DNA of 52,064 nucleotides from Clostridia bacterium (GTDB lineage: Bacteria > Bacillota > Clostridia > Christensenellales > CAG-917), in contig CAAEDU010000044.1 of the NCBI GenBank assembly GCA_900754695.1, positions 1 to 52,064 of the forward strand, in the 5' to 3' direction. Position 1 is the stretch's first letter, and each line of letters begins with the position of its first letter. The notes beneath the pieces are model-generated. The model ran no database searches. It was not told the DNA's origin and worked only from the letters and a program-made list of their open reading frames with translations. The position numbers were made by a program, and so were the translations under genes. Shown in pieces: positions 1 through 42,849 of this stretch.

Positions 1-13
1 CTCACCCAGACCA

Positions 14-50
14 GAGCGTCGCGGACTTAACTCGTCCGCGACGCTTTCTT
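14..50 (+). terminator. Rho-independent terminator of a + strand gene that ends upstream of the window
   Basis: 12-bp perfect stem AGCGTCGCGGAC / GTCCGCGACGCT (14-26, 34-45), 7-nt loop, then TTCTT. Confidence 0.6.
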
Positions 51-88
51 ATGAAATCATCGCTCACTCGTTCCGTCGCTCCGCTTAT

Positions 89-146
89 ATGCCAGACAGG
101 AATAATGCAAACCCGCCTCAGAGCAATTCTTTTCGGCGCTTTTGCG
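89..146 (+). repeat. Copy A of dispersed intergenic repeat (dyad core ATGCC-N5-GGAAT plus tail GAGCAATTNTTTTCGGCGCT)
   Basis: ATGCCAGACAGGAAT at 89-103 and GAGCAATTCTTTTCGGCGCTTTTGCG at 121-146. Gap-free alignment with copy C (39371-39428): about 40 of 58 positions identical, identical head-to-tail spacing (32 nt). Confidence 0.6.
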
Positions 147-158
147 TTGGCGTTCGCA

Positions 159-536
159 TTAAACTTTGTGAGTTTTGATCCATTCAAGGAGATCGGCATG
201 GCTCATCTCGCCCGAGGCGATGCTGAGCCCGACGGCAGCGACTTCATCGTTGGTGGCTTCGAGGCGTATCCCGTTGACTTCGAGAAAAGTGAACATAACA
301 TAGATACCTATCCTTTTGTTGCCGTCAACGAATGCATGGTTTGAAATCAGACTATAACCTATCCTTGCCGCTTTCTCCTCTTTTGTGGGATAGAGTTCCT
401 TGCCATCGAATGTAGCATAAGCGCTCTCAAGAGCGGAATCGAGCAACCCGAGATCCCTAACATCGGCGCTTCCGCCGGTCTCGGCGATCATCAACTGATG
501 CAGCAAAAGGACTTTATCTCTGCCGAATTTGATCAT
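159..536 (-). CDS. doc: Doc (death-on-curing) Fic-domain toxin
   Basis: 125 aa with Fic/Doc motif HAFVDGNKRIG. ATGA 4-nt overlap with the upstream antitoxin ORF. Confidence 0.9.
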   Translation of the reverse strand: MIKFGRDKVLLLHQLMIAETGGSADVRDLGLLDSALESAYATFDGKELYPTKEEKAARIGYSLISNHAFVDGNKRIGIYVMFTFLEVNGIRLEATNDEVAAVGLSIASGEMSHADLLEWIKTHKV

Positions 537-775
537 TTTGCGAGCTCCTCGAATGCGGGACGATAACGCTCGAGTATCCTGCGCGCCACAACATCGATCT
601 TTTCGTCGTCGGTGAGATCGAGATAGGGGCTCGAATTGATATCGAGCACAATATATTTCGGGCGGTTATTCTTGAAGATCACGGCAGCTCCCGTGGAATC
701 CGCAACGCGCGCCACTCGAGAAAAGTTTTGATTGGCATCCGTCATAGAGACTATCTGCTCGGTTCTTATCGTCAT
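533..775 (-). CDS. phd: Phd/YefM-family antitoxin
   Basis: About 80 aa with a Phd/YefM-like N-terminus (IVSMTDANQNFSRVARVA...AVIFKNNRPKYIVL). GGAGG lies 7 nt upstream of the ATG at 775; the ATG at 781 is only 1 nt from the RBS. Confidence 0.85.
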   Translation of the reverse strand: MTIRTEQIVSMTDANQNFSRVARVADSTGAAVIFKNNRPKYIVLDINSSPYLDLTDDEKIDVVARRILERYRPAFEELAK

Positions 776-793
776 ATCCATACCTCCGATAAT

Positions 794-822
794 ATTATAA
801 CCGAAAAATAGGATAAAATCAA
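794..822 (-). promoter_or_regulatory. phd-doc promoter
   Basis: Minus strand TTGATT (817-822), 17 nt spacer, TATAAT (794-799). The -10 is embedded in the 10-bp palindrome ATAATATTAT, a plausible Phd/Doc autoregulation site. Confidence 0.55.
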
Positions 823-912
823 CCTATTTTTAACAACACTCCTCTGAAGAATAATTTGTCATATAGACTGTGAGTGCGAAGGGATTTTATATTACTTGGG
901 GGCATATGCCCG

Positions 913-944
913 ACAAAAGCATAACCGCGGCATTTGCCGCGGTT
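913..944 (-). terminator. Terminator downstream of nrdB
   Basis: 9-bp stem AACCGCGGC / GCCGCGGTT (923-931, 936-944), loop of 4, followed on the minus strand by ATGCTTTTG. Confidence 0.6.
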
Positions 945-1031
945 GCACATGACTGTTACGGGCTCAAAGCCCGATGAGGACATTATTATTGCATGATCTC
1001 GAAATTGTGTCAAGCACGATGCGGGAATATC

Positions 1032-2084
1032 TCACAGGTCGTCTTCGAGGGCGCTGGACTTGGCGTAGGCGGTGGAGCGGGCTTCGAAGAAATCCGTCTT
1101 GATGAGGTTGGCGTTGGAGTATTGGCTCACCCACGCCATGGACTCGGGCTCCTTCTCGTAGCCGTCGTAGAGGTTGCCGAAACCGATGCCGTTGGAGCGC
1201 AGGTTGCCGAGATATTTGATGTAGTCCTCCACCATCTGCTCGTTGAGACCGGGGATGTCGTTGCCGATGATGTACTTGCCCCACTTGATCTCCTGCCGCA
1301 CGCCCTCGCGCATCATCTCTTTGAGCTCCTCGACGGCATCGTCGGTGAAGAGCTCGGGCTCCTCTTTCTTGAGCTCAAGGATGATGGAGCGGAAGAGCCA
1401 GAGATGGGTGTTCTCGTCGCGGTTGATGTAGCGGATCTCCTGCACGGAGCCGGGCATCTTGCCGTTCCTGCCCAGGTTGTAGAAGAACATGAAGCCGGAA
1501 TAGAAATAGATGCCTTCGAGGATGTAGTTGGCGATCATCACTTTGAGAAGGGTCTCTGCGGACCTGTCCTCGCGGAAGAGGTTGTAGATGTCGCCGATGA
1601 ACTTGTTGCGGGCGAGGAGATGCTCGTCATCCTTCCACTGATAGAGCACCTCGGTGCGCTCGTCCGGGGAGCAGATGGTGTCCAGCATATAGCCGTAGCT
1701 CTGAGAGTGGATCGCCTCCTGATAGGTCTGGATGTTGAGGCAAAGGTTGACCTCGTTGGCGGTGATATATTCACCGATGCCGGGAAGGTTTGCGGTCTGT
1801 ATGGAGTCCAGAAACACCAGGAAACTCAGCACCTTGTCATACGCCCTGCGCTCTGCGGGAGTGAGCGCCTTGCGGTAGTCCTTGATGTCTTGATTCATGT
1901 TGACTTCTTCCGGGATCCAGAAGTTGTTCATCGCCTGGCGATACCACGCGCTCGTCCAGGAATATTTGAGGTTGTTGAAGTCGTTGAGGTTGGTGGTGTT
2001 GCCGCCGATCATGCGGCGCTTGGTCACTTCGATGTCGCCGTGCTCGTTGAAGAGGGGCTTCATTTTAAGATAATGTTTTTCCAT
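1032..2084 (-). CDS. nrdB: Ribonucleoside-diphosphate reductase beta (R2) subunit, class I
   Basis: 350 aa ferritin-like R2 (FWIPEEV, ILEGIYFYSGF, NRDENTHL), acidic C-terminal tail LEDDL. The symbol assumes class Ia because the partner alpha has an ATP-cone. Confidence 0.9.
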   Translation of the reverse strand: MEKHYLKMKPLFNEHGDIEVTKRRMIGGNTTNLNDFNNLKYSWTSAWYRQAMNNFWIPEEVNMNQDIKDYRKALTPAERRAYDKVLSFLVFLDSIQTANLPGIGEYITANEVNLCLNIQTYQEAIHSQSYGYMLDTICSPDERTEVLYQWKDDEHLLARNKFIGDIYNLFREDRSAETLLKVMIANYILEGIYFYSGFMFFYNLGRNGKMPGSVQEIRYINRDENTHLWLFRSIILELKKEEPELFTDDAVEELKEMMREGVRQEIKWGKYIIGNDIPGLNEQMVEDYIKYLGNLRSNGIGFGNLYDGYEKEPESMAWVSQYSNANLIKTDFFEARSTAYAKSSALEDDL

Positions 2085-2208
2085 AATTCCTCCGAATGCT
2101 GCTTTTATATTGTTGTTTTGTGTTGTTCAACCTTACATTTTGTCGCTACACGCCTTTGTGCGCGATAGCGGCGCAGGAGCTTGCTCTCCGCGCCCGCGGC
2201 GTTCCGCG

Positions 2209-4719
2209 TCAGGACGAACAGGACTCGCACTCTTCCACTTCGAGGGACTTGGAGCGGATGTAATAGATGGTCTTGACGCCCTCCTCCCAAGCGAGGATGT
2301 AGAGGTTCAGCACCTGCCGCATCGTGAACTCGTTGGTGATGTAGAGGTTGAGAGACTGCGCCTGGTCCACATGACGCTGTCTTGCTCCCGCCGCTCTCAC
2401 CGTCCAGGTCTGGTCGATGAGGTGGGCGTTTTTGTAGAGCCAATAGGTCGCGGGAGAGAGGTCGGGCGCGACGCGCGGGATCATGGCGCCCTTCTTCTCC
2501 TCAAAGAAGAACTTCTTCATGACGGGGTCGAGACCCGCAGTCGTCCCCGCGATGATGGAAGTCGAGGAAGTCGGCGCCACGGCGATGAGATAGGAGTTGC
2601 GCATCCCCTGCTCTTTCACCTTTTCGCGGAGAGCGGTCCACCTTTCGGAGAGGTACTCGCGCTTGTCGAAATAGGCGCCCGTCTGCCAGTCCGAGCCCTC
2701 GAAGAAGAGATAGCTCCCCTTTTCCTTCGCGATGTCGCTGCTCGCCTCGATGGCGTAGTAGTTGATGTCCTCAAACACCTTGTCCGCAAAGGCGATGTGC
2801 TCCTCGCTCTCCCACTTGACGCCGTTCTTCGCGAGCATATGGTGATAGCCGGACACGCCGAGACCGATGGGGCGATACTTCTTGTTGTTGATCTTGGCGT
2901 ACTCCACGGGATAGAAATTGAGGTCGATGACGTTGTCCAGCCCGCGCACCGCCGTACGCACGATGTCTTTAAGTTCCGCCTCGTTCGTAACGCCGATGTT
3001 GCCCAGGACGAGGGATGCGAGGTTGCACACCACAAAATCGCCGGGACGGGTGACCTGCACCACCACTTCCTCACCGTTCTCGGTGACTATCTCGCGGGAG
3101 ACGAGCTCGATGGGCGACATGTTCTGCGCAATCTCCGTGCAGAGGTTGGAGCAATAGATCATGCCCTTGTGCGGGTTGGGGTTGGTGCGGTTGACGTGGT
3201 CGCGGTTGAAGCAGAAGGGAGTGCCCGTCTCCACCGCGGATTTCAGGATCAGACGCACCACTTCCTTCACGGGGATGACGCGCTTTGAGATGCGCTCGTC
3301 CTGCACGCAGTCGTAATATTTGCTCTCCCAATCCGCGCCGTAGCTGTCCTCGAGGTGATAGCCTTTGACGGTGAATATCTCGTGGGGGCACATCATATAC
3401 CACGGGGCGTTGATGTTGTCGCGGGCGAGCCGCCAGAAGAGGTCGGGATAGCACACCGCGGGGAAGACGTCGTGCGCCTTCATCCTGTCGTCGCCGTTGT
3501 TGGTGCGCAGCTGCAAAAACTCGGGCAGATCCTTGTGCCATGCGTCGAGATAGACCGCAACGGCGCCCTGACGCATGCCGAGCTGATCCACCGCGACGGC
3601 GGTGTCGTTGACGAGTTTGATCCAACGGATGACTCCGCCCGCCGCGCCCTGGAAGCCGCGTATGGGCGCGCCCGTCGCGCGTACTTTGCCGAAATAGAGA
3701 CCCATGCCGCCCCCGAACTTGCTCACTTTGGAGAAGTTGTCGATGCTGCGGTAGATGCCGTCGAGAGAATCGGGCACGGTGTCGATGAAACAGCTCGAGA
3801 GCTGATGATAGGGCTTGCGAGAGTTGGAAAGCGTTGGGGTCGCCACCGTCACTTTCAAAAGGGAAAGCATGTCGTAGAACGCCTTCACCCAGCGCATCCT
3901 GTCCTTCTCCTTCATCGCAAGGTGCATTGCGATGCCGAGGAACATCTCCTGCGGAGTCTCGAGCAGCGTGCCGTCGAAGTCGTGGATGACATAGCGTTTG
4001 AGCACGAGCTGCAAAGAGGAATAGGTGAAAAGTTTGTCACGCTCCGCGTCGATGAGACGGGCGCAGGCGTTCACTTCCTCCTCTGTGTAGTTTTCGAGGA
4101 TATATTTGCCGTAAAGACCTCGGTCGGTAAGATAGCTCAGCTTTGAGAAAAAGCCGTCTATCCCCCTCTCCTTCTCGCGCGCGGCAAGTTTGAAGTGCAT
4201 GTCCGCCATCACGAGACGCGCGGAGATGAACTCCCATTTGGGCGCTTCCTGGGTGGTGAGCTCGACGGCGGCGCGCACGAGCGCCGCATAGCGCGCGTTT
4301 TCGTCCGCTCCTTCTCTTGCGAAAGAGGCGAACTTGCCTGAAAGATACATCAGGTCATACTCTGGCTCGGTGAAGTCCGCCTGGATGCCTTTGAGCACGG
4401 CGGAGAGCTCCCTTTCAGGGAAATTTTCCGCGATCTCGGTGCGGTACGCCCTCGCCTTCGCGCGGGAGTCGCGGTAAAGGATGAAACTCTTGACTTCGTC
4501 GAAATAGCCCTTCTCCATCAGGGTCTTTTCCGCAAAGTCCTGCACCTCTTCGACGGTGGTCGGGAAGGCGGTGATCTTGGCGATGACGGCGTCCGTGAGA
4601 GCGTCGAGCTCCGCGTCCGTCACGGCATGCTCCACGCTGCGGAAAGCGGCTGCGAGAGCGTTCTTGATCTTGACGGCGTCGAACTTCTGCTTTTTGCCGT
4701 CTCTCTTGGTGATGAACAT
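2209..4719 (-). CDS. nrdA: Ribonucleoside-diphosphate reductase alpha (R1) subunit with N-terminal ATP-cone
   Basis: 836 aa. ATP-cone (ITKRDGKKQKFDAVKIKNAL), catalytic core (YCSNLCTEI, APTSSTS), C-terminal CESCSS. ATG at 4719 preceded by AGGAGGGG; the ORF-track start at 4734 is a TTG inside the RBS region. Confidence 0.93.
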   Translation of the reverse strand: MFITKRDGKKQKFDAVKIKNALAAAFRSVEHAVTDAELDALTDAVIAKITAFPTTVEEVQDFAEKTLMEKGYFDEVKSFILYRDSRAKARAYRTEIAENFPERELSAVLKGIQADFTEPEYDLMYLSGKFASFAREGADENARYAALVRAAVELTTQEAPKWEFISARLVMADMHFKLAAREKERGIDGFFSKLSYLTDRGLYGKYILENYTEEEVNACARLIDAERDKLFTYSSLQLVLKRYVIHDFDGTLLETPQEMFLGIAMHLAMKEKDRMRWVKAFYDMLSLLKVTVATPTLSNSRKPYHQLSSCFIDTVPDSLDGIYRSIDNFSKVSKFGGGMGLYFGKVRATGAPIRGFQGAAGGVIRWIKLVNDTAVAVDQLGMRQGAVAVYLDAWHKDLPEFLQLRTNNGDDRMKAHDVFPAVCYPDLFWRLARDNINAPWYMMCPHEIFTVKGYHLEDSYGADWESKYYDCVQDERISKRVIPVKEVVRLILKSAVETGTPFCFNRDHVNRTNPNPHKGMIYCSNLCTEIAQNMSPIELVSREIVTENGEEVVVQVTRPGDFVVCNLASLVLGNIGVTNEAELKDIVRTAVRGLDNVIDLNFYPVEYAKINNKKYRPIGLGVSGYHHMLAKNGVKWESEEHIAFADKVFEDINYYAIEASSDIAKEKGSYLFFEGSDWQTGAYFDKREYLSERWTALREKVKEQGMRNSYLIAVAPTSSTSIIAGTTAGLDPVMKKFFFEEKKGAMIPRVAPDLSPATYWLYKNAHLIDQTWTVRAAGARQRHVDQAQSLNLYITNEFTMRQVLNLYILAWEEGVKTIYYIRSKSLEVEECESCSS

Positions 4720-4727
4720 AGCCCCTC

Positions 4728-4776
4728 CTAACAATATATGGAAATCGTTGCGGCGTCACACCACAACATATAGCTT
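4728..4776 (-). promoter_or_regulatory. Two NrdR-box-like sites in the nrdA 5' region
   Basis: Minus strand CCATATATTGTTAG (4728-4741) and AAGCTATATGTTGTGG (4761-4776), about 33 bp centre to centre. One overlaps the predicted TSS, the other abuts the RBS. They resemble the AT-core NrdR box (acaCwAtATaTwGtgt). Confidence 0.5.
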
Positions 4777-4780
4777 TTCC

Positions 4781-4809
4781 ATTGTATCAAAGGAGCATTG
4801 TCTTGGCAA
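4781..4809 (-). promoter_or_regulatory. nrdAB promoter
   Basis: Minus strand TTGCCA (4804-4809), 17 nt, TACAAT (4781-4786). Confidence 0.65.
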
Positions 4810-5043
4810 GCGCTTTCGAGGTTTTTCCGGCGGCAAAAACACCCCTTTTTCACCCGCCGCACGCCGGCGGCGAAAAACGCCCGAAAAGCAATGCCGCAGG
4901 GCGTCCGAGGATAAATATGCAAACTCTCAAAAACCGATACTGCATGGTGTCGGAAGAGCACATCACCTGTCGGCGCCGATGTCGCACGGCGCCCGAAGCG
5001 GAAGGCAGAGAGCGCACACGGAGCGATGATAAAAAGGGAGGAC

Positions 5044-5069
5044 AAGAAAAAAGACGGGCAACGCCCGTC
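5044..5069 (-). terminator. Terminator of the ATP synthase operon
   Basis: Stem GACGGGC / GCCCGTC (5053-5059, 5063-5069), 3-nt loop, followed on the minus strand by TTTTTTCTT. Confidence 0.8.
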
Positions 5070-5106
5070 ATGTCACTTGTGCGCGGTACTGCCATTTGTG
5101 CCGCCG

Positions 5107-7797
<2,691 letters not shown>

Positions 7798-7801
<4 letters not shown>

Positions 7802-9522
7802 TTCCTCTCCGCCATGACGGCGTTCGCCGCCTTAAGGATATTCTCTTTGAGTTCGGGCGAAAGTTTGCCCGTGCCCGCGATCTCCGCCGAAAACTCGGGG
7901 TGTCTCTCCTCGAGCGCGGCGATGAGCCTCTCCGCCTCGGCGTTGATGCGGGCGGGCGGGACGCTCTCGAAGACGTGCCCGAGCGCACACACCAGCAACA
8001 GCACTTCCTGCGCCTGCGTATAGGGCTTGCATTGCGGCTGACGCAACAGTCTCATGAGCCCCTGTCCGTAGAAGAGCTGCTTGCGCGTGAGCTCGTCCAA
8101 GTCGCCCGCAAACTGCATGAAGACCTCCATCTCGCGGTATTGCGCAAGGTCGAGACGGAGGGAGCCGACCGCCTTTTTCACCGCCGGCGTCTGCGCGTTT
8201 CCGCCCACTCGGGAGACGGAAAGACCGACGTTGACGGCGGGGCGCTGTCCCTCGAAAAAGAGCTCGCTCTCGAGGAATATCTGCCCGTCCGTGATGGAGA
8301 TGACATTGGTGGGGATATAGGCGGAAACGTCGCCCGCCTGGGTCTCGACGACGGGAAGCGCGGTCATGCTGCCCCCGCCGAGCTCGTCGGAGAGGTGCGC
8401 CGCGCGCTCCAACAGTCTGGAATGCAGATAAAAGACGTCGCCGGGATAAGCCTCGCGCCCGGGAGCGCGCTCCAAAAGCAGGCTGAGGGTGCGGTACGCC
8501 ACCGCGTGTTTGCTCAGGTCGTCATAGACGATCAAGACGTCCTTGCCCGAATACATGAAATATTCCGCAAGCGCGCAGCCCGCATAGGGGGCGATATACT
8601 GCATGGGGGCGGACTCCCCCGCGCCCGCGGTGAGGATGACGGTGTAGTCGAGGACGCCGTAGCGTTTCAGCATATCCGCAAGCCGCACGACGGAGGAAGT
8701 CTTCTGCCCTATGGCGACATAGATGCAGATGACGCCCTTACCTTTCTGATTGATGATGGTGTCGAGGGCGATGGCGGTCTTGCCCGTCTGTCTGTCCCCG
8801 ATGATGAGCTCGCGCTGACCCCTGCCGATGGGGAAGAGGGCGTCCACGACGAGCAGCCCCGTCTCCATGGGCTTGTTGACGGGCTGACGGTCGACGATGC
8901 CGGGAGCGGGACACTCGATGGGACGATAGCCGTCCGCCTCGATCGCACCCTCGTCGTCCACGGGCTCGCCGAGCGCGTTGATCACTCTGCCGAGGAAACC
9001 GTCCCCTACGGGGACGCCCGCGGTCTTGCCCGTGCGGTGCACGGCGCTTCCCGCCGTGACGTCGCGGCTGTCGCCGAACATGATCACGCCCACGCTGTCC
9101 CGCCGGAGCTCCTGCACCATGCCCTTCACTCCGCACTCGAAGATGACGATCTCGCCGTAAGTGGCGTGCGCGAGCCCGTCCACTCTGGCGATGCCGTCGC
9201 CGACGGAAAGCACTCTGCCGCGCTCTTCGGAAAGCACTTCGGGCGACCACTCGTCGACCGCCTTTCGGATGAGAGGGATGACATTGCTCTCGGAAAGTGC
9301 GAGAGAGGCGAGTTTGTTTTTGAGCTGAGTCAGCCTGCCGCCCGCGCTCCAATCATAGACGTCTCCCCCGACTTCCAGCCCGAAGCCGCCGGGATAGGCG
9401 GAACTGCGCACCCATTCAAGCTCCGTATCTCCGTATTTTTCCGTGAGAAAACGCACGAAACGCGCAAATTGCGCGTCCGAGGGACGGGATTCGGAATAAA
9501 GGACCGCCTTAATCTTTGCCAT
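7798..9522 (-). CDS. atpA: F1 ATP synthase alpha subunit with N-terminal delta(OSCP) C-terminal-domain-like extension
   Basis: 574 aa from the ATG at 9522. Residues about 78-574 align with alpha (GDRQTGKT Walker A). Residues 1-73 (..AYPGGFGLEVGGDVYDWSAGGRLTQLKNKL) match the C-terminal motif of delta. No separate atpH lies between atpF and atpA. Confidence 0.9.
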
Positions 9523-11688: not shown

Positions 11689-13710
11689 CTACTCTTCTTT
11701 GTCCTCATCATCGGGAGGAGTCTCGGTGACCGTGACGGTGACCTCCTCTTCCTCGGTGCCGTCGGAGGTGACGGTGGTGTCGACGGTCTCGTCCACCGTG
11801 ACGGTGCTGCCGTCCGCGCCCTCCGCCACGAGTTTAGCCTCGTTGCGACGCTTGATCTCGGCGACTGCCTCCTGCTGCTCCTTCTCGTTGAACTTGTAGA
11901 AGAAGATGGGGACGGCGGAGAGGATGAAGCTCAGAGCCGCGACCAGCATGAGCATGATCCACATGACGTCTTTGCCGCTTGCGTCCAGCGCGCCGGGGTT
12001 GTTGGCGGTGACGCCCGCGAGATAGTAACCCATGACGCCGATGAACGCGCCGATCGCCATACCGATCTTGTTGATGAAGGTCTGCATCGCGAAGCAGATG
12101 CCTTCCGCTCTCTCGCCCGTCTTGAGCTCGAGATACTCGATGGTGTCGCCGATCATGGCGTAGGAAACGATGTTGGTGAGACCGGACGGGATGCCGGAGA
12201 CGACGATGGCAAGCAGCGCGATGACGAGAGTCGCCGTCGAGGTGTAGTTGCCTTTGTCGATCGCCATACCGACGATGAACGCGATGAGGAGAGCCACGCC
12301 GCCCGCGATATTCGTCCAGATGTAGGACTGTTTCTTGCCTATCTTCTTGGTGAGATAAGGCACCAGGAGCGAGGCGATGAGTCCGCCGGGGACGATGGCG
12401 ATGGTGACCAGAGTGTAGAGACCTTCGCCGTGCATTCCTATGAAGTTGACGCTGTCAAGGACATATTTGCAGAAGTAGAGTCCGCCCGTGTAGGTGAAGA
12501 CCATTCTCGCCGCGCCCAGGATGCCGGAGATGACGATGAGCATGAGGGGCTTGTTCTTGAACAGCAGGGAGAGGTTGTGCTTGAGAGACGGGGGTTTGAC
12601 GTTATCCAGTTCGCTCGTCCTCTCCTTCGTGAATTTGAAGCCGACGAAGAAGAGAGGCATACCGACCGCGACACAGATGATCGCCGCCACGAAGTAGATG
12701 TAGCTGAGGTCATTCTGCTTTTCGCTGAGAGTGCCGTCCAGGATCTTCTGAAGATCGTTCGCCGTCCATTCGCTCATGGGCTTGTCGTTTATCAGCTCGC
12801 CGCCTTCGCTGTCCTTGCCTTCGTAAACGGCTTTCGCCTCGAGATACGCGTTGTATACTGCGGAATCCTTGCCGAACTCTTTCAAAATGAAGTTTTCAAG
12901 CGTGCCGTAGTTTGCGGTGATGTTCGCAAACGTGCCGTCACGGTTGGCGTCAAAGTTGAGAGAAAAATCTTCGGTTTTGTCTCCGTCCTTGTCCACATCC
13001 GCAAGGTCGGGGACGATGATCTCGCCGCCCTCGCTGTCCACCGCGAACTGGATCTGGGAAACGATGCCCTGATAGGCGTTGATGTTGGTCTGCAAAGTGC
13101 CGGTCATACCGCTGGTGACCTGAGGCACCACGATGGTGACGATGCCCGCGCCCGCCGTGCACAGCAGACGCGCTATGGTCAGCAGGTTGCCGCGGCGGAA
13201 GGTGTCGTTGGACATGCGGGAGTTCAGCCCCCAGTAAGGCACGTCGCAGACGGTGTACACCATGCCCCAGATTATGTACATGACGGACATTGCCGCAAAG
13301 CCGCCGGGGTTGTTGGGGTACCACGGCAGGAAGCACAGGATGGTCACCACCGCGACGGGGATCGCCATCCATTTAAGATAAGGACGGCACTTGCCCCACG
13401 GGGTGCGCGTTCTGTCGACGATGGAGCCCATGATCGGGTCGTTCAATGCGTCGTAAATTCGCGCAAACAGCATGAGCAGCGCGACCGCCAACGCACCGTA
13501 ACCGATCGCATCCGTCATAAAGACGGTCAGATAAGAACCGATGATGGTGCAGATCAGGTTCTGACCGAAGCCGCACAGAGAGTACGCAATGCCCTCTTTC
13601 GGCTGCATTTCGCCGTCGCCGGGATAAGTGCCGAAAAGCTTGTGCCAAATGCTGCGCTTTTCGGTGCCGACCGCGACGGCGCCGTTTTCCATGGTTTTCA
13701 CATCTTCCAT
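11689..13710 (-). CDS. Glycoside-pentoside-hexuronide (GPH) family cation symporter with large loop insertion and acidic C-terminal tail
   Basis: 673 aa. GPH signature DALNDPIMGSIVDRTRTPWGKCRPY, 11-12 TM helices, about 135-aa hydrophilic insert between TM5 and TM6. Confidence 0.85.
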   Translation of the reverse strand: MEDVKTMENGAVAVGTEKRSIWHKLFGTYPGDGEMQPKEGIAYSLCGFGQNLICTIIGSYLTVFMTDAIGYGALAVALLMLFARIYDALNDPIMGSIVDRTRTPWGKCRPYLKWMAIPVAVVTILCFLPWYPNNPGGFAAMSVMYIIWGMVYTVCDVPYWGLNSRMSNDTFRRGNLLTIARLLCTAGAGIVTIVVPQVTSGMTGTLQTNINAYQGIVSQIQFAVDSEGGEIIVPDLADVDKDGDKTEDFSLNFDANRDGTFANITANYGTLENFILKEFGKDSAVYNAYLEAKAVYEGKDSEGGELINDKPMSEWTANDLQKILDGTLSEKQNDLSYIYFVAAIICVAVGMPLFFVGFKFTKERTSELDNVKPPSLKHNLSLLFKNKPLMLIVISGILGAARMVFTYTGGLYFCKYVLDSVNFIGMHGEGLYTLVTIAIVPGGLIASLLVPYLTKKIGKKQSYIWTNIAGGVALLIAFIVGMAIDKGNYTSTATLVIALLAIVVSGIPSGLTNIVSYAMIGDTIEYLELKTGERAEGICFAMQTFINKIGMAIGAFIGVMGYYLAGVTANNPGALDASGKDVMWIMLMLVAALSFILSAVPIFFYKFNEKEQQEAVAEIKRRNEAKLVAEGADGSTVTVDETVDTTVTSDGTEEEEVTVTVTETPPDDEDKEE

Positions 13711-30938: not shown

Positions 30939-31026
30939 CTTTTAAGTCTCGTCCATCCGCCGCACGGGCGGTGGCGCTTTTGAGTCTCGTCTCCCCGCAC
31001 TCGCCGAGACGCTTGTAAGTCTCATA
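30939..31026. repeat. Three direct repeats CTTTTAAGTCTCGTC / CTTTTGAGTCTCGTC / CTTGTAAGTCTCATA
   Basis: Copies at 30939-30953, 30977-30991, 31012-31026 (spacing 38 and 35 nt), 100-190 nt upstream of the pur promoter. Confidence 0.6.
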
Positions 31027-33431: not shown

Positions 33432-33474
33432 AAACATCCTGCCCGTGCATGTTGCACGGGCAGGATGTTTTTTA
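33432..33474. terminator. Bidirectional terminator (17-bp stem)
   Basis: AACATCCTGCCCGTGCA tgt TGCACGGGCAGGATGTT flanked by A and T runs; abuts the stop of the minus-strand hydrolase gene. Confidence 0.8.
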
Positions 33475-34434
33475 ATTCCGTTCGGATAGCTTAGAAAGTT
33501 CCGTTGAGAGCACGGCGCTCCATTTTTCGGGTTCTTCGATGTCGGGGGAATGGGCGGAGTCTTCAAACCACACCCAGGTCTTGGACGGGGCTTCGAGGGC
33601 TTCGAACCATTCCTGCGCGATGGCGGACGGGGTGTTGTAGTCGTGTCTGCCCTGCGTGATGACGACGGGGACGTCGAGGCGCTTTATCGCGCTCAGCCGC
33701 TGTCCCACCACGTCGGACCACATGACGTCAGAGAGATAGGTCGCGCCCTGCGCGTATTTCACGATGTCCGCGAGGGTGTATTCCTTTGTTTTGAGGAGGG
33801 GCATCAGCAGCCCTTTGACCAGTCCCTGTTTGCCGCGGTAGATGGCGCCGCCGTAGCGGGAGAGGCAGTCGCGCTGGGTCATCATGCTCTTGTTGTCGGG
33901 ATAGACTCCGTCCACGGGCGCGCCCTTTGCGAGCGCCGCGAGCGCTTTCTTGTCCCCGCGCTTTTTTGCCTCTTCCAGGCAGAAGCGGTAGGAGCCTTCC
34001 TCATTGCGGTCGCCGTCCACGAACTGCCCTTCTCCGACATAAGCGAAAAAGAGATCGGGGCGTTTGCTCACTGCGAGCACGCCGATGATGGAGCCCCAAC
34101 TGTGCCCGACGAGAGCGATCCTGCGCACGCGGAACCGTCCCGCGAGATACTCCGCGAGAAAGAGGATGTCATCCACATATTCCGACACCTTCGGGGTGCG
34201 CTTGCGGATGGCGGGGGTGTAGCTTTTGCCGCTCCCGCGCTGATCCCAGCACACGAGGGTGAACTTCTCGGCAAGGTCGGAGTGATAGCCCAGCACGTTG
34301 TGTCTGTCGCACACACCCGGTCCGCCGTGCACGAAAAGCACGACGGGCAAGCCCTCCTTCGCCGCGCGGATGCGGATGTTCTGTCTGTCACCGTTGATCT
34401 CGATGAATTCTTCCGTGTCGATGGCGTAAGTCAT
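33472..34434 (-). CDS. Alpha/beta hydrolase, proline iminopeptidase-like (S33)
   Basis: 320 aa, HGGPG and GHSWGS motifs. Confidence 0.8.
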   Translation of the reverse strand: MTYAIDTEEFIEINGDRQNIRIRAAKEGLPVVLFVHGGPGVCDRHNVLGYHSDLAEKFTLVCWDQRGSGKSYTPAIRKRTPKVSEYVDDILFLAEYLAGRFRVRRIALVGHSWGSIIGVLAVSKRPDLFFAYVGEGQFVDGDRNEEGSYRFCLEEAKKRGDKKALAALAKGAPVDGVYPDNKSMMTQRDCLSRYGGAIYRGKQGLVKGLLMPLLKTKEYTLADIVKYAQGATYLSDVMWSDVVGQRLSAIKRLDVPVVITQGRHDYNTPSAIAQEWFEALEAPSKTWVWFEDSAHSPDIEEPEKWSAVLSTELSKLSERN

Positions 34435-39538: not shown

Positions 39539-39568
39539 TTGAAACCGCGCTCCCCGCGCAGGTATAAT
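39539..39568 (+). promoter_or_regulatory. Promoter upstream of the integrase remnant
   Basis: TTGAAA, 18 nt, TATAAT. Confidence 0.5.
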
Positions 39569-39619: not shown

Positions 39620-40035
39620 GTGAAACAGCAAAAAAAGTTCAGCAACCATTCCATGCCCGCCCGCTGTCCTCGCAAAACACAAGGGAAATGCGTTCTCTTT
39701 GCCGACGCCGCTAAGCTGTATATCGGATATTCCAAAGCGGTCACTTCGGCGGAGACCGCCGTCAAGCGGATGCGTTTCTTCGCGCAGTTCTACAACGCCG
39801 CCTTCGCCGAGCGCAACATCGCGTCCATCTCCCTTCCGATGTCTACCGCTGGTTCGACGGCGTGATCACCGCCAAGCGCCGCGACGGCAAGGGTTGCTAC
39901 GCTCCGCGCACCCTCCGCTCCGTATGGGGACAGCTCTACACCTTCTTCTCGTGGTGCAGCACCCGCTACCCCGTCCAGAACCCGATGTACGCCATCAAAA
40001 TGCCCCGCACCCGCGCCGCGGAACGCAACATGACC
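39620..40035 (+). pseudogene. Tyrosine recombinase/integrase N-terminal fragment, frameshifted and truncated
   Basis: GTG start with AAAGGAGAAAG RBS. FADAAKLYIGYSKAV..AVKRMRFFAQFY continues in another frame as DVYRWFDGVITAKRRDG..TLRSVWGQLYTFFSWC..NPMYAIKMP (frameshift near 39835). No catalytic R-H-R-Y domain follows. Confidence 0.55.
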
Positions 40036-40182
40036 TTTCGGCACATAACGTTGCCCTGCAACCGCCGCACCGTCTTTATGTATATCCGCCTCATAAATGC
40101 GTATCTCTTTATACAACGATATTTGACTGCAGCCGCAATGCTTAGCATGTTTGTTTCTCAAATGCACGTTTCGTGATATGAC

Positions 40183-40267: not shown

Positions 40268-40672
40268 TCAAATGAGAGCGGGACACGCGGCGGCGAGCGC
40301 TTCTCCTGTCAAATCAACGCGCGCGCTTTCTCCCGCCCGCTTTTCGCGGACGCGGCGACGCTTCGCACGCTCGCGCTCCATCCTGCGTCCGTAATCCAAG
40401 CTGCGCGGGAGCACCGTGATGAGAGTGCCGCCTTCAAGCACAAAGATATACTCACGGTAAAGCACCATGTCTCTGCCCGCATATTCTTCGCACTCCGCCG
40501 CGATCTCCTTCCTGTGTCTGAGATAAGCCGCACCCGCGCCCCTGCTCTCCGCCTGCCTGACTCCGCGCGCCATCGCATCCGCGACAAACGCCGCGCGCTT
40601 GCTTTCGCTCTTCATGCCGGGCACGCGCTCCTTGATCCTCCTCTCCGCATGTTTGGTGATGATGATGTCCAT
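40268..40672 (-). CDS. Hypothetical protein, DUF4258-like (possible orphan toxin-like RNase fold)
   Basis: 134 aa from MDIIITKHAERRIKER (GGAGGAAG RBS). The HAxxRxxxR start and ..FVLEGGTLITVL core are reminiscent of DUF4258. Assignment is from memory only. Confidence 0.45.
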   Translation of the reverse strand: MDIIITKHAERRIKERVPGMKSESKRAAFVADAMARGVRQAESRGAGAAYLRHRKEIAAECEEYAGRDMVLYREYIFVLEGGTLITVLPRSLDYGRRMERERAKRRRVREKRAGESARVDLTGEALAAACPALI

Positions 40673-40883
40673 AACTTCCTCCGCAATATCGTCGTCAAAC
40701 GGGCTTCTCCCGTTTGCAAACATATTATACCGCGCGTCACGTCCCAAAAATGTCCCGCTTCTGCTTCATCGCAAAAAATCCCGCCGCTAAAAATTCACAC
40801 TTGCACGACCTTTGCAGGATCGGAACAAAGCATTCAATACATGGCCGTTTGACAAACAACATGCACCGTGTTAATATTTCAAT

Positions 40884-41042
40884 GATCCCGAACGGGGTAC
40901 TGCCATACGGTGTGCAGGCCGCTAATGCGAGGTTCCGGGTAGCGCCGGCGCGGACGATAGAAGTAAGGCATAAAGCCGGCCGTCGACCCAGGATCGACGG
41001 AGAGCACTTGAAACTCTGCTCACTTACTTTCGTCCTTTTTTT
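40884..41042 (+). ncRNA. Module 1: putative ~160-nt transcript
   Basis: Promoter TTGACA(40849-54)-17-TAATAT(40872-77). Hairpin-rich (CGTCGA ccaggat TCGACG) and ends at the T-run 41034-41042. The terminator stem is weak. Confidence 0.3.
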
Positions 41043-41270
41043 ATCTCTTTTGTTATGCCTGCGTTTGCTCACGACACAGAACCCTTCAATACATTACATC
41101 GGTTGCCCATTCTTCTATTTCAGTTTTTGCGCACTTTTATTCATGCTCATTGAATGATTTCGTACAATTTCGTACGATAAATCGCTCGGTTACAGCCTCA
41201 ACTGCTCGAGGCGTTCTGCGTATATGCACCCAAACATTGACAAAACGTCGATGAATGATATGATGAAAAT

Positions 41271-41349
41271 GCAGGCTGCGGTCAGACCGTGGCACGGTCG
41301 GGACTAGTTTACCGACCACTTCAAGTCCGATTGCGACCGGACTTTTTTT
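41271..41349 (+). ncRNA. Module 2: putative ~75-nt sRNA
   Basis: Promoter TTGACA(41237-42)-16-TATGAT(41259-64). Hairpin GGTCGG..CCGACC. Terminator AGTCCG attgcgac CGGACT + T7 (41324-41349). Confidence 0.5.
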
Positions 41350-41385
41350 GTTGACTTCTCAGTGTCATTTATCTATACTTTCCGT

Positions 41386-41485
41386 AGAGCGTTGGGCTAT
41401 GTACGAATTGAGTTTCGGGTCGCCCGTAATCAACAGCCACGGCTTTCGAGCTAGTTGTTGTCGCTCTTTTTTCTTTTGTTTTTTC
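41386..41485 (+). ncRNA. Module 3 (family F2): putative ~100-nt transcript
   Basis: Promoter TTGACT(41351-56)-17-TATACT(41374-79). Ends in a long T-rich tract at 41466-41485. Homologous to module 7. Confidence 0.35.
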
Positions 41486-41582
41486 GGCGGATCACCCGCA
41501 GCAAACACACCGTCGACACCGAAGCAGACCCGATCTTCGCAAAACGCTTGACGCGCCCGCCGAGGGTGCTTAAAATATGATT

Positions 41583-41709
41583 GATCTCGAAAGAGATCTT
41601 CCCGATCCGTTCGGGTGCGCCTCATTCGTGAGGCCTCGTTTGGGAGCCATAGCGCTCCTTGCGCAAGGAAGACTGTTCGTAAGATGTTCGCCTTGCGCTT
41701 TTCTTTTTG
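41583..41709 (+). ncRNA. Module 4 (family F1): putative ~125-nt sRNA
   Basis: Promoter TTGACG(41548-53)-17-TAAAAT(41571-76). 5' hairpin ATCTC gaaa GAGAT. Terminator GCGCAAGG..CCTTGCGC + TTTTCTTTTT. Confidence 0.5.
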
Positions 41710-41812
41710 TCTCGAATTTACAAAAAAATGAGGAACAACCACGCAGCCCCGCGTCCGATCCGACTTCTGCAAAACGCTTGACGATCCCGTAGAGAAGACT
41801 TAAAATAAAAGT

Positions 41813-41887
41813 AATCTTGAAAGAGGTTCCGATGTTGCCCGGTTTTACCGAGGCGATCACAAGAGTCCACCGGCCTCTTGTTTTTTT
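41813..41887 (+). ncRNA. Module 5 (family F1): putative ~75-nt sRNA
   Basis: Promoter TTGACG(41778-83)-17-TAAAAT(41801-06). 5' hairpin ATCTT gaaa GAGGT, UUUUA-loop hairpin. Terminator CAAGAG..CTCTTG + T7. Confidence 0.55.
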
Positions 41888-41927
41888 GCCGTTGACACAC
41901 CTACCCCGATCCGTGTATACTGTTCTT

Positions 41928-41996
41928 GGCAGTAAGCCAGATGCGCCTGATCAGCGTGTCAACCCGCGTCAGCCGAAAGGGGGCGCGGTTTTCTTT
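41928..41996 (+). ncRNA. Module 6 (family F2-like): putative ~70-nt sRNA
   Basis: Promoter TTGACA(41892-97)-18-TATACT(41916-21). GC stem CCGCG..CGCGG then TTTTCTTTTG. Confidence 0.4.
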
Positions 41997-42033
41997 TGTT
42001 GACAATTCGCCGATATCCGTATATGCTGATTTC

Positions 42034-42126
42034 GAAGAGCGTCTGCTGGTAAACGGTTCTCCGTTCCCTGTAATTAGCGACCAAAGCCTCGTGCCAGTTG
42101 CTTCCGCTCTTTTTCTTTTGCCTTTT
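42034..42126 (+). ncRNA. Module 7 (family F2): putative ~95-nt transcript
   Basis: Promoter TTGACA(41999-42004)-17-TATGCT(42022-27). T-rich end at 42109-42126. Homologous to module 3. Confidence 0.35.
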
Positions 42127-42224
42127 CAGCGGCTCACCCGCAGCAAACACACCGCCGACACCGAAGCCGACCCGATTTTCGCAAAACGCTTGACGATCCC
42201 GCCGGAAAAGCTTAAAATACAAGC

Positions 42225-42302
42225 AATCTCGAAAGAGATTTGGGGACGCCGGGTTTTACCTAGGCGGTTGCAGGAGTCCATTATTTGGGCTCTTGTTTTT
42301 TT
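42225..42302 (+). ncRNA. Module 8 (family F1): putative ~78-nt sRNA
   Basis: Promoter TTGACG(42190-95)-17-TAAAAT(42213-18). 5' hairpin ATCTC gaaa GAGAT, UUUUA-loop hairpin with bulged A. Terminator CAGGAG..CTCTTG + T7. Confidence 0.55.
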
Positions 42303-42482
42303 GCCGCATAACGAAACGACATGCCCCTCGACTCCGACGCCCTTCCAAAGCCTGCCGAGACGAACAAATCGATATCGCAACGAGGTGCGCGCTCGCGCTA
42401 CCGCCCGGTATTCGAAAGACCGGCAGAATGATCGTATAAGGCAACAGTTGACGGAATATAGAATATGGGGTACAATGTGACC

Positions 42483-42583
42483 GACAGCATGGCTCAGCCG
42501 TGTAAGCGATTTTCACTTGATGCCCATCAAATCGCATTGTCAGAATTAAGTCCTCGGCTTCTTGCCGGGGCCTTCTTTTTTTG
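42483..42583 (+). ncRNA. Module 9: putative ~100-nt sRNA
   Basis: Promoter TTGACG(42448-53)-17-TACAAT(42471-76). Long hairpin GCGATTT..AAATCGC. Terminator CCTCGGC ttctt GCCGGGG + CCTTCTTTTTTT. Confidence 0.5.
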
Positions 42584-42730
42584 TTGTCGCATCGCTCAAA
42601 CATACCCCGCCCGCAAACCGCCGAACCTGCGCGCCGATCTTTCATCTCGCTTCAGGCGGCGTTTGAACATATGTTTGCCATGACGCTCCGAGGATGGATT
42701 TCGCGCGGGTCGCTCCCCTTGAAGCTACGC

Positions 42731-42769
42731 AAAAATCCGAAGGACACCGATCTTGCGGTGTCCTTCGGA
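42731..42769 (-). terminator. Terminator of the rpsU-tRNA-Val transcript
   Basis: 14-bp stem TCCGAAGGACACCG / CGGTGTCCTTCGGA, followed on the minus strand by TTTTT. Confidence 0.85.
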
Positions 42770-42772
42770 TCT

Positions 42773-42849
42773 TGGTGGGGACAACAGGACTCGAACCTGT
42801 GACCTCTTGTATGTGAAACAAGCGCTCTAACCGACTGGGCTATGCCCCC
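42773..42849 (-). tRNA. tRNA-Val (anticodon CAC), CCA encoded
   Basis: Hand-folded cloverleaf: acceptor GGGGGCA/TGTCCCC, anticodon stem CTTGT/ACAAG with loop TTCACAT, T-loop TTCGAGT. One C-A mismatch in the D stem. Confidence 0.85.

Follow-up and report, generated by a model that had tools for sequence, protein, structure and literature searches.

We analysed a window of 52,064 nucleotides (nt), contig CAAEDU010000044.1 (GCA_900754695.1) of an uncultured gut Clostridia bacterium, in which positions 40849 to 42583 (window positions, as throughout) hold nine head-to-tail units, M1 to M9, each with its own promoter. From sequence comparison, this array most probably represents nine separate small RNA (sRNA) genes, the cargo of a decayed integrative element in which they occupy the end next to the tRNA, a reading to which we assign a probability of roughly 0.65. 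An earlier note on the sequence had proposed a tandemly amplified cluster of sRNA genes inside a degraded mobile element; the sRNA genes and the element are borne out by what follows, and the tandem amplification in part.

A scan for sigma-70-type promoters (at least 10 of 12 hexamer positions matching the consensus) returned nine + strand sites within the 1.7 kb of the array, each with 10 or 11 of 12 matches, and these were the nine sites, with the same spacings, that the earlier note had listed. Between positions 40000 and 43500 there were 12 promoter-like sites versus 2.0 +/- 1.4 in shuffled sequences, and the array contributed 9 of the 23 sites found in the whole window on both strands, all of them on the + strand. 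The likeness to the tRNA and rpsU promoters of the window, also claimed earlier, holds, the yardstick promoters of rpsU (43117, - strand) and tRNA-Ser (14367, - strand) scoring 12/12. With the transcription start presumed to lie 6 to 7 nt after the -10 hexamer, the units and intervening stretches are as follows (RNA sizes and structures are predictions; F1 and F2 denote two repeat families).

M1, 40849 to 41042, + strand: promoter at 40849 (TTGACA-17-TAATAT); RNA of ~157 nt with a 5' hairpin, a 60-nt core, a 3' domain and a closing stem plus U-run.
Gap A, 41043 to 41236, no strand: holds a gene remnant and a decayed repeat.
M2, 41237 to 41350, + strand: promoter at 41237 (TTGACA-16-TATGAT, with TG extension); RNA of ~80 nt with three hairpins, terminator at 41323 to 41344.
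M3 (F2), 41351 to 41475, + strand: promoter at 41351 (TTGACT-17-TATACT); RNA of ~87 nt closed by AGAGCG/CGCUCU plus U-run.
M4 (F1 promoter), 41476 to 41708, + strand: upstream region, promoter at 41548 to 41576 (TTGACG-17-TAAAAT); RNA of ~124 nt with a GAAA 5' hairpin and four more hairpins, terminator at 41678 to 41697.
M5 (F1), 41755 to 41887, + strand: promoter at 41778 to 41806 (TTGACG-17-TAAAAT); RNA of ~71 to 73 nt with a GAAA hairpin containing two G-U pairs, a UUUUA hairpin and a terminator.
M6, 41892 to 41998, + strand: promoter at 41892 (TTGACA-18-TATACT); RNA of ~69 nt with three hairpins including the terminator.
M7 (F2), 41999 to 42119, + strand: promoter at 41999 (TTGACA-17-TATGCT); RNA of ~82 nt closed by GAAGAGCG/CGCUCUU plus U-run.
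M8 (F1), 42120 to 42302, + strand: upstream region, promoter at 42190 to 42218 (TTGACG-17-TAAAAT); RNA of ~74 to 76 nt, terminator at 42270 to 42296.
Gap B, 42307 to 42447, + strand: decayed C-terminus of a Phd/YefM antitoxin gene; not a module.
M9, 42448 to 42582, + strand: promoter at 42448 (TTGACG-17-TACAAT); RNA of ~98 nt with two hairpins closed by GACA/UGUC, terminator at 42552 to 42570.
Array-tRNA spacer, 42584 to 42772, no strand: a conserved ~44-nt segment and an 18-bp hairpin (inverted repeat, 42732 to 42773) able to terminate both tRNA and + strand transcripts.

Distances from the presumed start to the T-run in M1 to M9 were 157, 80, 87, 124, 71, 69, 82, 74 and 98 nt, respectively, and thus span 69 to 157 nt, in agreement with the stem and U-tract that the earlier note had placed 70 to 160 nt downstream of each promoter. 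Canonical terminators were found by scanning in M2, M4, M8 and M9, that of M5 was called in the related contig L018 (contigs compared with the window carry the prefix L), and the 3' end of M6 consists of a GC stem with an internal loop followed by a U-run. Relative to shuffled sequences, single-sequence fold z-scores were -3.7 (M2), -3.8 (M4), -5.0 (M8) and -3.8 (M9), about -2 for M3, M5, M6 and M7, and -0.5 for M1. The 5' hairpin stands at the extreme transcript end in M1 and the F1 modules; M9 starts with an arm of its long-range closing stem. The G+C content of the array is 44 to 53%, versus 57 to 66% in the flanking genes.

Comparison of repeats and folds recovered both families as described in the earlier note. 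F1 comprises three 74-nt copies with 72 to 81% identity, of which those in M4 and M8 belong to a shared stretch of 130 nt with 85% identity; its GAAA-loop hairpin reads AAUCUC/GAGAUU or AAUCUU/GAGGUU, and its UUUUA-loop hairpin CGG/CCG or GGG/CCU, just as claimed. F2 (M3 and M7) is real but weaker, with 38 nt at 74% identity. F1 promoters are preceded by an A/T-rich stretch that may act as an UP element.

Evidence on whether these signals are maintained came from about 20 related contigs, which yielded 29 orthologous, phylogenetically non-independent module comparisons. The -35 hexamer was never changed (0/174, 0%) and the -10 hexamer in 7/174 positions (4.0%), while changes affected 52/496 positions (10.5%) of the promoter spacer and 20/174 (11.5%) between the -10 hexamer and the start. 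Predicted stems were changed at 3.1% of positions (60/1924) and unpaired positions at 6.9% (80/1161). This substitution pattern matches the one expected of working promoters that drive structured RNAs.

Consensus folds were stronger on the + than on the - strand in all five families, at (+ versus -) -36 and -24 kcal/mol for M9, -29 and -18.5 kcal/mol for M6, -31 and -13 kcal/mol for F1, -47 and -42 kcal/mol for M4, and -12 and -7 kcal/mol for F2. Individual changes pointed the same way. In M9, the changes U-A to U-G and U-G to C-G are compatible with the + strand only; a G-U to G-C change in M6, the two G-U pairs in the GAAA hairpin of M5 and a C-G to G-U change in the UUUUA hairpin all fit a + strand RNA. 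The first hairpin of M6 is altered in sequence yet retained (GGCAGUAAGCC versus GGCUAGGAGCC), and the closing stem of F2 covaries, with A-U replaced by G-C (AGAGCG/CGCUCU versus AGGGCG/CGCCCU in L034). In the M1 family, 91.6% of cells were paired versus 32 to 45% with slid partners, and 8 pairs had changed on both sides versus 1 to 3 in the slid controls. Its 5' hairpin occurs in at least five sequence versions, all of them paired (CCCGAACGGG, CCCGAAAGGG, CUCUCGAAAGAGA, UCUCAACAGAGA and CUUCAUGAAG), and its internal hairpin shows a G-C to A-U change. The 60-nt core of M1 (GCCGCUAAUGCGAGGUUCCGGGUAGCGCCGGCGCGGACGAUAG) is near-invariant beyond what its structure requires. Conserved hexamers with drifting spacers, together with helices kept through compensatory and + strand-specific G-U changes, showed purifying selection on the promoters, the structures and the + orientation.

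The region could instead be decayed coding DNA in which the signals arose by chance, or its modules could encode small proteins or type I toxins. Two stretches are indeed gene remnants: positions 41043 to 41090 of gap A derive from the 3' end of a convergent gene that is intact, with 199 codons, in L036, and gap B matches at 71% DNA identity an intact 80-amino-acid (aa) gene (L024:9511-9753; PhdYeFM_antitox, E = 5e-4), which Fic/Doc adjoins in L033. Gap A also includes, at 41080 to 41094, a decayed copy of the upstream sequence of the M1 promoter. Open frames of up to 184 aa are present in the array, and gene callers place ORFs (open reading frames) of 120 to 205 aa on it, which we regard as spurious. 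A Pfam search with the ten longest array frames gave no match, and the only relatives of these frames at the protein level are the same DNA in other contigs, again without domains. No array ORF combines a Shine-Dalgarno sequence with conservation, and no credible Shine-Dalgarno sequence was seen in the array. The array is considered non-coding because M4 orthologues differ by frame-breaking 1- and 2-nt indels and its frames have no Pfam match. The promoters, moreover, are enriched far above chance, with a -35 hexamer that did not change in 174 positions, and all lie on the + strand without convergent overlapping pairs. With the two gaps excepted, the earlier description of the region as free of ORFs therefore stands, and a coding origin is extremely unlikely.

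The modules belong to no RNA family that we could name, in agreement with the earlier note. Rfam 15 at gathering threshold returned only tRNAs in the window and eight related loci; at E <= 10, matches were at chance level, the best non-tRNA ones in 40600 to 42800 reaching 18 bits versus thresholds of 41 to 55 and resting on the terminator of M9. ARAGORN found no extra tRNA in the array. Several known kinds of locus were considered and rejected. A type I toxin-antitoxin system is contradicted by promoters that all lie on one strand and by the lack of a conserved small ORF with a Shine-Dalgarno sequence, and a type III (ToxIN-like) system by the lack of short tandem repeats in the region and of a downstream toxin gene. 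No regularly spaced repeats of a CRISPR array or RNA anti-CRISPR occur within the window. Unlike integron cassettes, the units have their own promoters and no ORFs, and there is one inverted repeat only (attC models were not run). A miniature inverted-repeat transposable element or repetitive extragenic palindromic element is not indicated, as there are no terminal inverted repeats and no further copies in the 52-kb window; array copies are confined to this island family. Two further resemblances were also set aside as unsupported, namely, tRNA-like or decoy hairpin loops (the loops vary, and ARAGORN finds no extra tRNA) and a likeness of the CUGCC..GGCAG hairpin of M1 to a type I-F CRISPR repeat.

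The setting of the array is that of an integrated element, delimited by the following features.

tRNA-Val(CAC), 42773 to 42849, - strand: its 3' end marks the border of the island and serves as the attachment (att) site.
Integrase remnant, 39620 to 40176, + strand: frameshifted N-terminus of a tyrosine integrase, marking the far end of the island.
Gene for a 134-aa protein, 40268 to 40672, - strand: divergent from M1, at the inner island end; uncharacterised family.

Alignments of the window with ten related genomes, all of which share its rpsU protein, break off at 42772/42773, where tRNA-Val has its 3' end. DNA to the left of 42773 is therefore a strain-specific island, and the array, absent from the same site in all ten, is not a feature of the core genome. 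The integrase remnant has a weak PHROG integrase match and its own promoter-like site at 39539, and Phage_integrase fragments occur at the same place in relatives. The occupant of the site in the window is decayed and 3.4 kb long. Duplicated tRNA ends are present in several relatives (45 nt in L017), and the ~44-nt segment of the array-tRNA spacer recurs beside att remnants in relatives. The degraded mobile element of the earlier note is thereby recovered, with its boundary at the tRNA-Val 3' end and a frameshifted integrase.

A role at the DNA level, as single-strand origins or priming sites of rolling-circle replication or as insulators shielding tRNA-Val from island transcription, has to be weighed in this setting. 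Single-strand origins of rolling-circle elements are structured, orientation specific and recognised by RNA polymerase; Rep-encoding (REP_ORF2-G2P) elements use the same hotspot in relatives, G-T pairs are tolerated in folded single-stranded DNA as well, and the array is convergent with the tRNA. Nine different units, however, far exceed the need of one origin, they carry ordinary double-stranded -35/-10 pairs whose hexamers rather than spacers are conserved, and each ends in a T-run typical of intrinsic termination. The Rep elements of L017 and L004 are separate insertions with an att duplicate between them and M1, and an insulator would need terminators, not promoters. We therefore consider a DNA-level role very unlikely.

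Homologues were reached through the 134-aa gene (L011 to L022) and the spurious array ORFs (L024 to L034 and L037 to L039), and a pattern scan of metagenomes (JGI) with the M1 core added two contigs, L035 and L036. Nothing was found by blastn searches of GenBank phages and PLSDB plasmids with the array, by pattern scans of IMG/VR with the F1 promoter, the M1 core, M9 and M6, or by a scan of JGI metagenomes with the F1 promoter pattern, and the GTDB species representatives, reached via the 134-aa protein, contributed one locus, without M1. Module order differed among the window, L018, L024, L026, L031 and L034. M1 occurs in more than 15 contigs at 86 to 98% identity, including contigs without M2 to M9, and M2 was seen in the window only among the loci compared. 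L018 carries M3 to M9 at 96.6% identity. The order in L026 to L030 is M1, an inverted paralogue (M1'), an F2 copy, M6, M7, M4 and then the 3' end of M9; in L024 it is an F2 copy, a new module, M6, M7, M4, M5 and M9. L031 has M4, M5 and M9, with an M1 body two genes further on, and L033 reads tRNA-Val, doc, phd, M9, M5, M4, the array being upstream of the addiction operon in the same orientation.

M1 paralogues lie at 12771 to 12313 (- strand) of L026 and 9250 to 9440 (+ strand) of L018. M1' is inverted, retains the promoter hexamers of M1 and has a separate terminator, and a further copy of ~430 nt (M1''), with a 300-nt insertion after the core, replaces part of the L026 integrase pseudogene. 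In L031 and L036 the M1 body is joined to an F1-type promoter and a GAAA or AACA 5' hairpin. These comparisons showed that modules are duplicated, lost, re-ordered and given new promoter/5'-hairpin units, and that they travel with mobile-element DNA. Tandem amplification, as the earlier note had it, applies only to M3-M4 and its counterpart M7-M8; taken whole, the array is, by the same comparisons, a mosaic re-ordered through recombination in shared promoter and terminator parts, not the product of simple amplification. Separately, L036 (positions 1 to 5187) has a single M1, with an F1-type promoter, flanked by a gene for a phage-type DNA methyltransferase and the 199-aa gene, whose product is rich in lysine. 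Of the remaining proteins of this contig, one of 346 aa shows a possible P-loop-like motif (by eye) and the others belong to no family. M1 may have originated in an element of the L036 type.

The junction of tRNA-Val and rpsU had a different occupant in almost every related genome (L001 to L023). Hydrolase and acetyltransferase genes, a sigma-factor cluster, and a serine recombinase accompanied by an inovirus-type Rep are among the occupants, and in several genomes tandem occupants are split by duplicated tRNA ends. Defence candidates at the hotspot in relatives are HIRAN/PDC-M03B, a GajB-like UvrD helicase and PDC-M26A with DUF2357. By its occupants, then, the tRNA-Val site is a hotspot of conflict and integration. 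In L003, a 1.2-kb stretch without ORFs that follows the tRNA contains three copies of the terminator hairpin of tRNA-Val (GAAAACCCGAGGTAACACTCGGGTTTTT; 10290, 10891 and 11422, + strand), which suggests scars of repeated integration and excision in another lineage. Beyond the array of L018, a tRNA 3'-like sequence (TGGTGGAGTAAATCGACAGAAAATCGAACC...) is found twice, 220 nt apart (7780 to 7700 and 7560 to 7490, minus-strand reading); ARAGORN finds no tRNA at these repeats, and they may be att duplicates of a further element.

Two protein-coding neighbours bear on the statement in the earlier note that no partner protein is in view. None is obligatory, and to that extent the statement stands; in relatives, the phd-doc operon follows the array (intact in L024 and L033) and the 134-aa gene precedes it. 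This protein begins MDIIITKHAERRIKER..., its homologues have 73 to 99% identity, and its gene is kept in all island variants. A library of 1.8 billion proteins yielded 45 remote relatives of ~90 to 185 aa; the protein has no Pfam or PADLOC family, only weak matches to PHROG families of unknown function. An AlphaFold 2 model (pLDDT 71) shows, in order, helices, three strands and a long basic helix; a fold search was non-significant, with RelE/YafQ-type toxins among the top PDB matches (E about 1.4 to 2). M1 and this protein were also considered as an obligate pair, which the presence of the gene without M1 in L012 and L023 contradicts. Elsewhere in the window, ARAGORN called a tRNA-Glu(UUC) at 34292 to 34367 (- strand), below the Rfam gathering threshold and inside an ORF (33472 to 34434, - strand), which is probably a false positive, and an intergenic tandem repeat lies at 30939 to 31023 (period 35, 2.3 copies, 78% matches).

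If the modules are sRNA genes, each would be a complete unit, with a near-consensus housekeeping (sigma-70/SigA-type) promoter, a start ~7 nt after the -10 hexamer, and an RNA body of one to four conserved hairpins followed by an intrinsic terminator or a closing stem plus U-run. The T-run that ends the module before, or else an upstream stretch rich in A and T, would often feed the promoter; in the array, the T-run of one terminator abuts the -35 hexamer of the next module. Expression would be constitutive from the integrated, even decayed, element and would need no element-encoded factor. A hairpin at the 5' end stabilises transcripts in Firmicutes, and the 5' hairpin and terminator would here give stable, abundant RNAs of 70 to 160 nt. 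The RNAs would act in trans for the element, as "RNA morons," preferably by base pairing with transcripts of the host or of rival elements, with the M1 core as the best candidate contact site on conservation grounds. Base pairing is favoured because nearly all characterised element-borne sRNAs act in this way (for examples, see bioRxiv 10.64898/2026.05.13.724894 and PMC4825925). A role in which the RNAs sequester a protein or toxin comes close to base pairing in likelihood.

Several observations weigh against this reading. M1, M3 and M7, whose terminators the earlier note had rightly called weak, end in a long-range closing stem and a T-run only, without a canonical terminator hairpin. A recombinant F2 copy in L026 has an A·C mismatch that breaks the closing pair. 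The homologues come from one narrow lineage, mostly at 85 to 99% identity, and most of the covariation stems from a few events; with so few and such close relatives, the covariation tests have limited statistical power. The ~70 nt upstream of the F1 promoters (CACCCGCAGCAAACACACCG.CGACACCGAAGC.GACCCGAT.TTCGCAAAACGC; 41476 to 41547 versus 42120 to 42189) are ~85% identical between M4 and M8; this conservation exceeds the need of an UP element, and a regulator may bind there, or F2 transcripts that read through may have their tail in this stretch. With respect to base pairing, duplex energies against the island genes and tRNA-Val were mostly within the shuffled range (lowest z = -2.9, for M9 versus tRNA-Val), in a test made weak by near-full-length, uninterpretable duplexes. 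No extended antisense match to the modules was found in ~500 kb of related DNA, and no conserved C-rich or anti-Shine-Dalgarno seed motif was evident by eye.

These negative target searches (island genes, tRNA-Val and ~500 kb) count in favour of another function, in which the RNAs would be stoichiometric decoys, sponges or RNA antitoxins in conflict between elements or between element and host, e.g., neutralising a nuclease or toxin or blocking defence. So do the very strong promoters with terminal hairpins at both ends (M1 and F1), which suggest high steady-state levels, and the near-invariance of the M1 core beyond structural need. The defence candidates of the hotspot, the adjoining Phd-Doc and a turnover of modules between strains that is fast, as in arms races, fit as well. 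Against such a function, no protein is consistently linked to the array (L012 and L023 have the 134-aa gene but not M1, and the product of this gene has no PADLOC match), there are no ToxI-like short tandem repeats, and the window has no CRISPR-like repeat. A decoy function is in our view less likely than base pairing, and trans-acting sRNAs that pair with other transcripts remain our preferred explanation.

Stand-alone element-borne sRNA genes and tandem sRNA genes are both already known. Spr RNAs are encoded on S. aureus pathogenicity islands. Tandem sibling sRNAs (LhrC1-4 of Listeria, PrrF1/2, OmrA/B and Qrr) are paralogues of one family with a shared seed in the core genome. Phage morons are independent promoter-gene-terminator units in prophages and classically encode proteins. 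In ToxI, identical short repeats in tandem are processed by an adjacent ToxN, and RNA anti-CRISPRs mimic CRISPR repeats. Further element-borne sRNAs are the Pas sRNAs of pathogenic E. coli (bioRxiv 10.64898/2026.05.13.724894) and IsrK of Gifsy-1 (PMC4825925). Like Pas, IsrK and Spr, the array modules are stand-alone promoter-RNA-terminator cargo that varies between strains in presence, copy number and sequence, in keeping with horizontal acquisition followed by divergence. Pas, IsrK and Spr are single or paired and come from Proteobacteria or Staphylococcus, whereas the array has nine units of at least six unrelated types, head to tail, in uncultured Clostridia, and has no sequence or Rfam relationship with them. 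With the sibling clusters the array shares short RNA genes that all point one way and have individual promoters and intrinsic terminators, as well as local duplication (M3-M4, M7-M8); it differs from them in its unrelated bodies, its exchangeable promoter/5'-hairpin units and its location on a mobile element. Like morons, the units are autonomous, insulated, near the end of an element and deviant in G+C content, and expression would be expected from the integrated state; unlike morons, they are RNA only and stacked nine deep. ToxI and RNA anti-CRISPRs are likewise non-coding RNA cargo of conflict loci with strong expression (predicted in the case of the array), but the array has no such repeats, no ToxN-like gene and no CRISPR-like hairpin families. 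What is unusual, then, is the combination of nine head-to-tail units of at least six unrelated types, the exchange of units, strain-specific sets, an uncultured host and the absence of an Rfam family.

To our knowledge, gut Clostridia, being uncultured, have hardly been explored for regulatory RNAs, and sRNAs of mobile elements are known mainly singly and in Proteobacteria. The value of the array hinges on expression and target data; the locus offers at least six new predicted families of structured RNA with clear transcription signals, one of which, M1, has several paralogues. It also illustrates how promoter, 5' stabiliser and RNA body can be shuffled as modules in nature, and its promoters and terminators are compact, apparently strong parts for the engineering of Clostridia. 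More broadly, integrative elements of gut Clostridia might draw on an exchangeable pool of sRNA-gene cassettes whose RNAs would serve as weapons or immunity against elements, phages and host defences, an RNA-only counterpart of defence and anti-defence islands; judged from sequence, we regard this as doubtful. If a role in conflict is true, islands can carry purely RNA cargo, which protein-centred surveys of defence islands would have overlooked.

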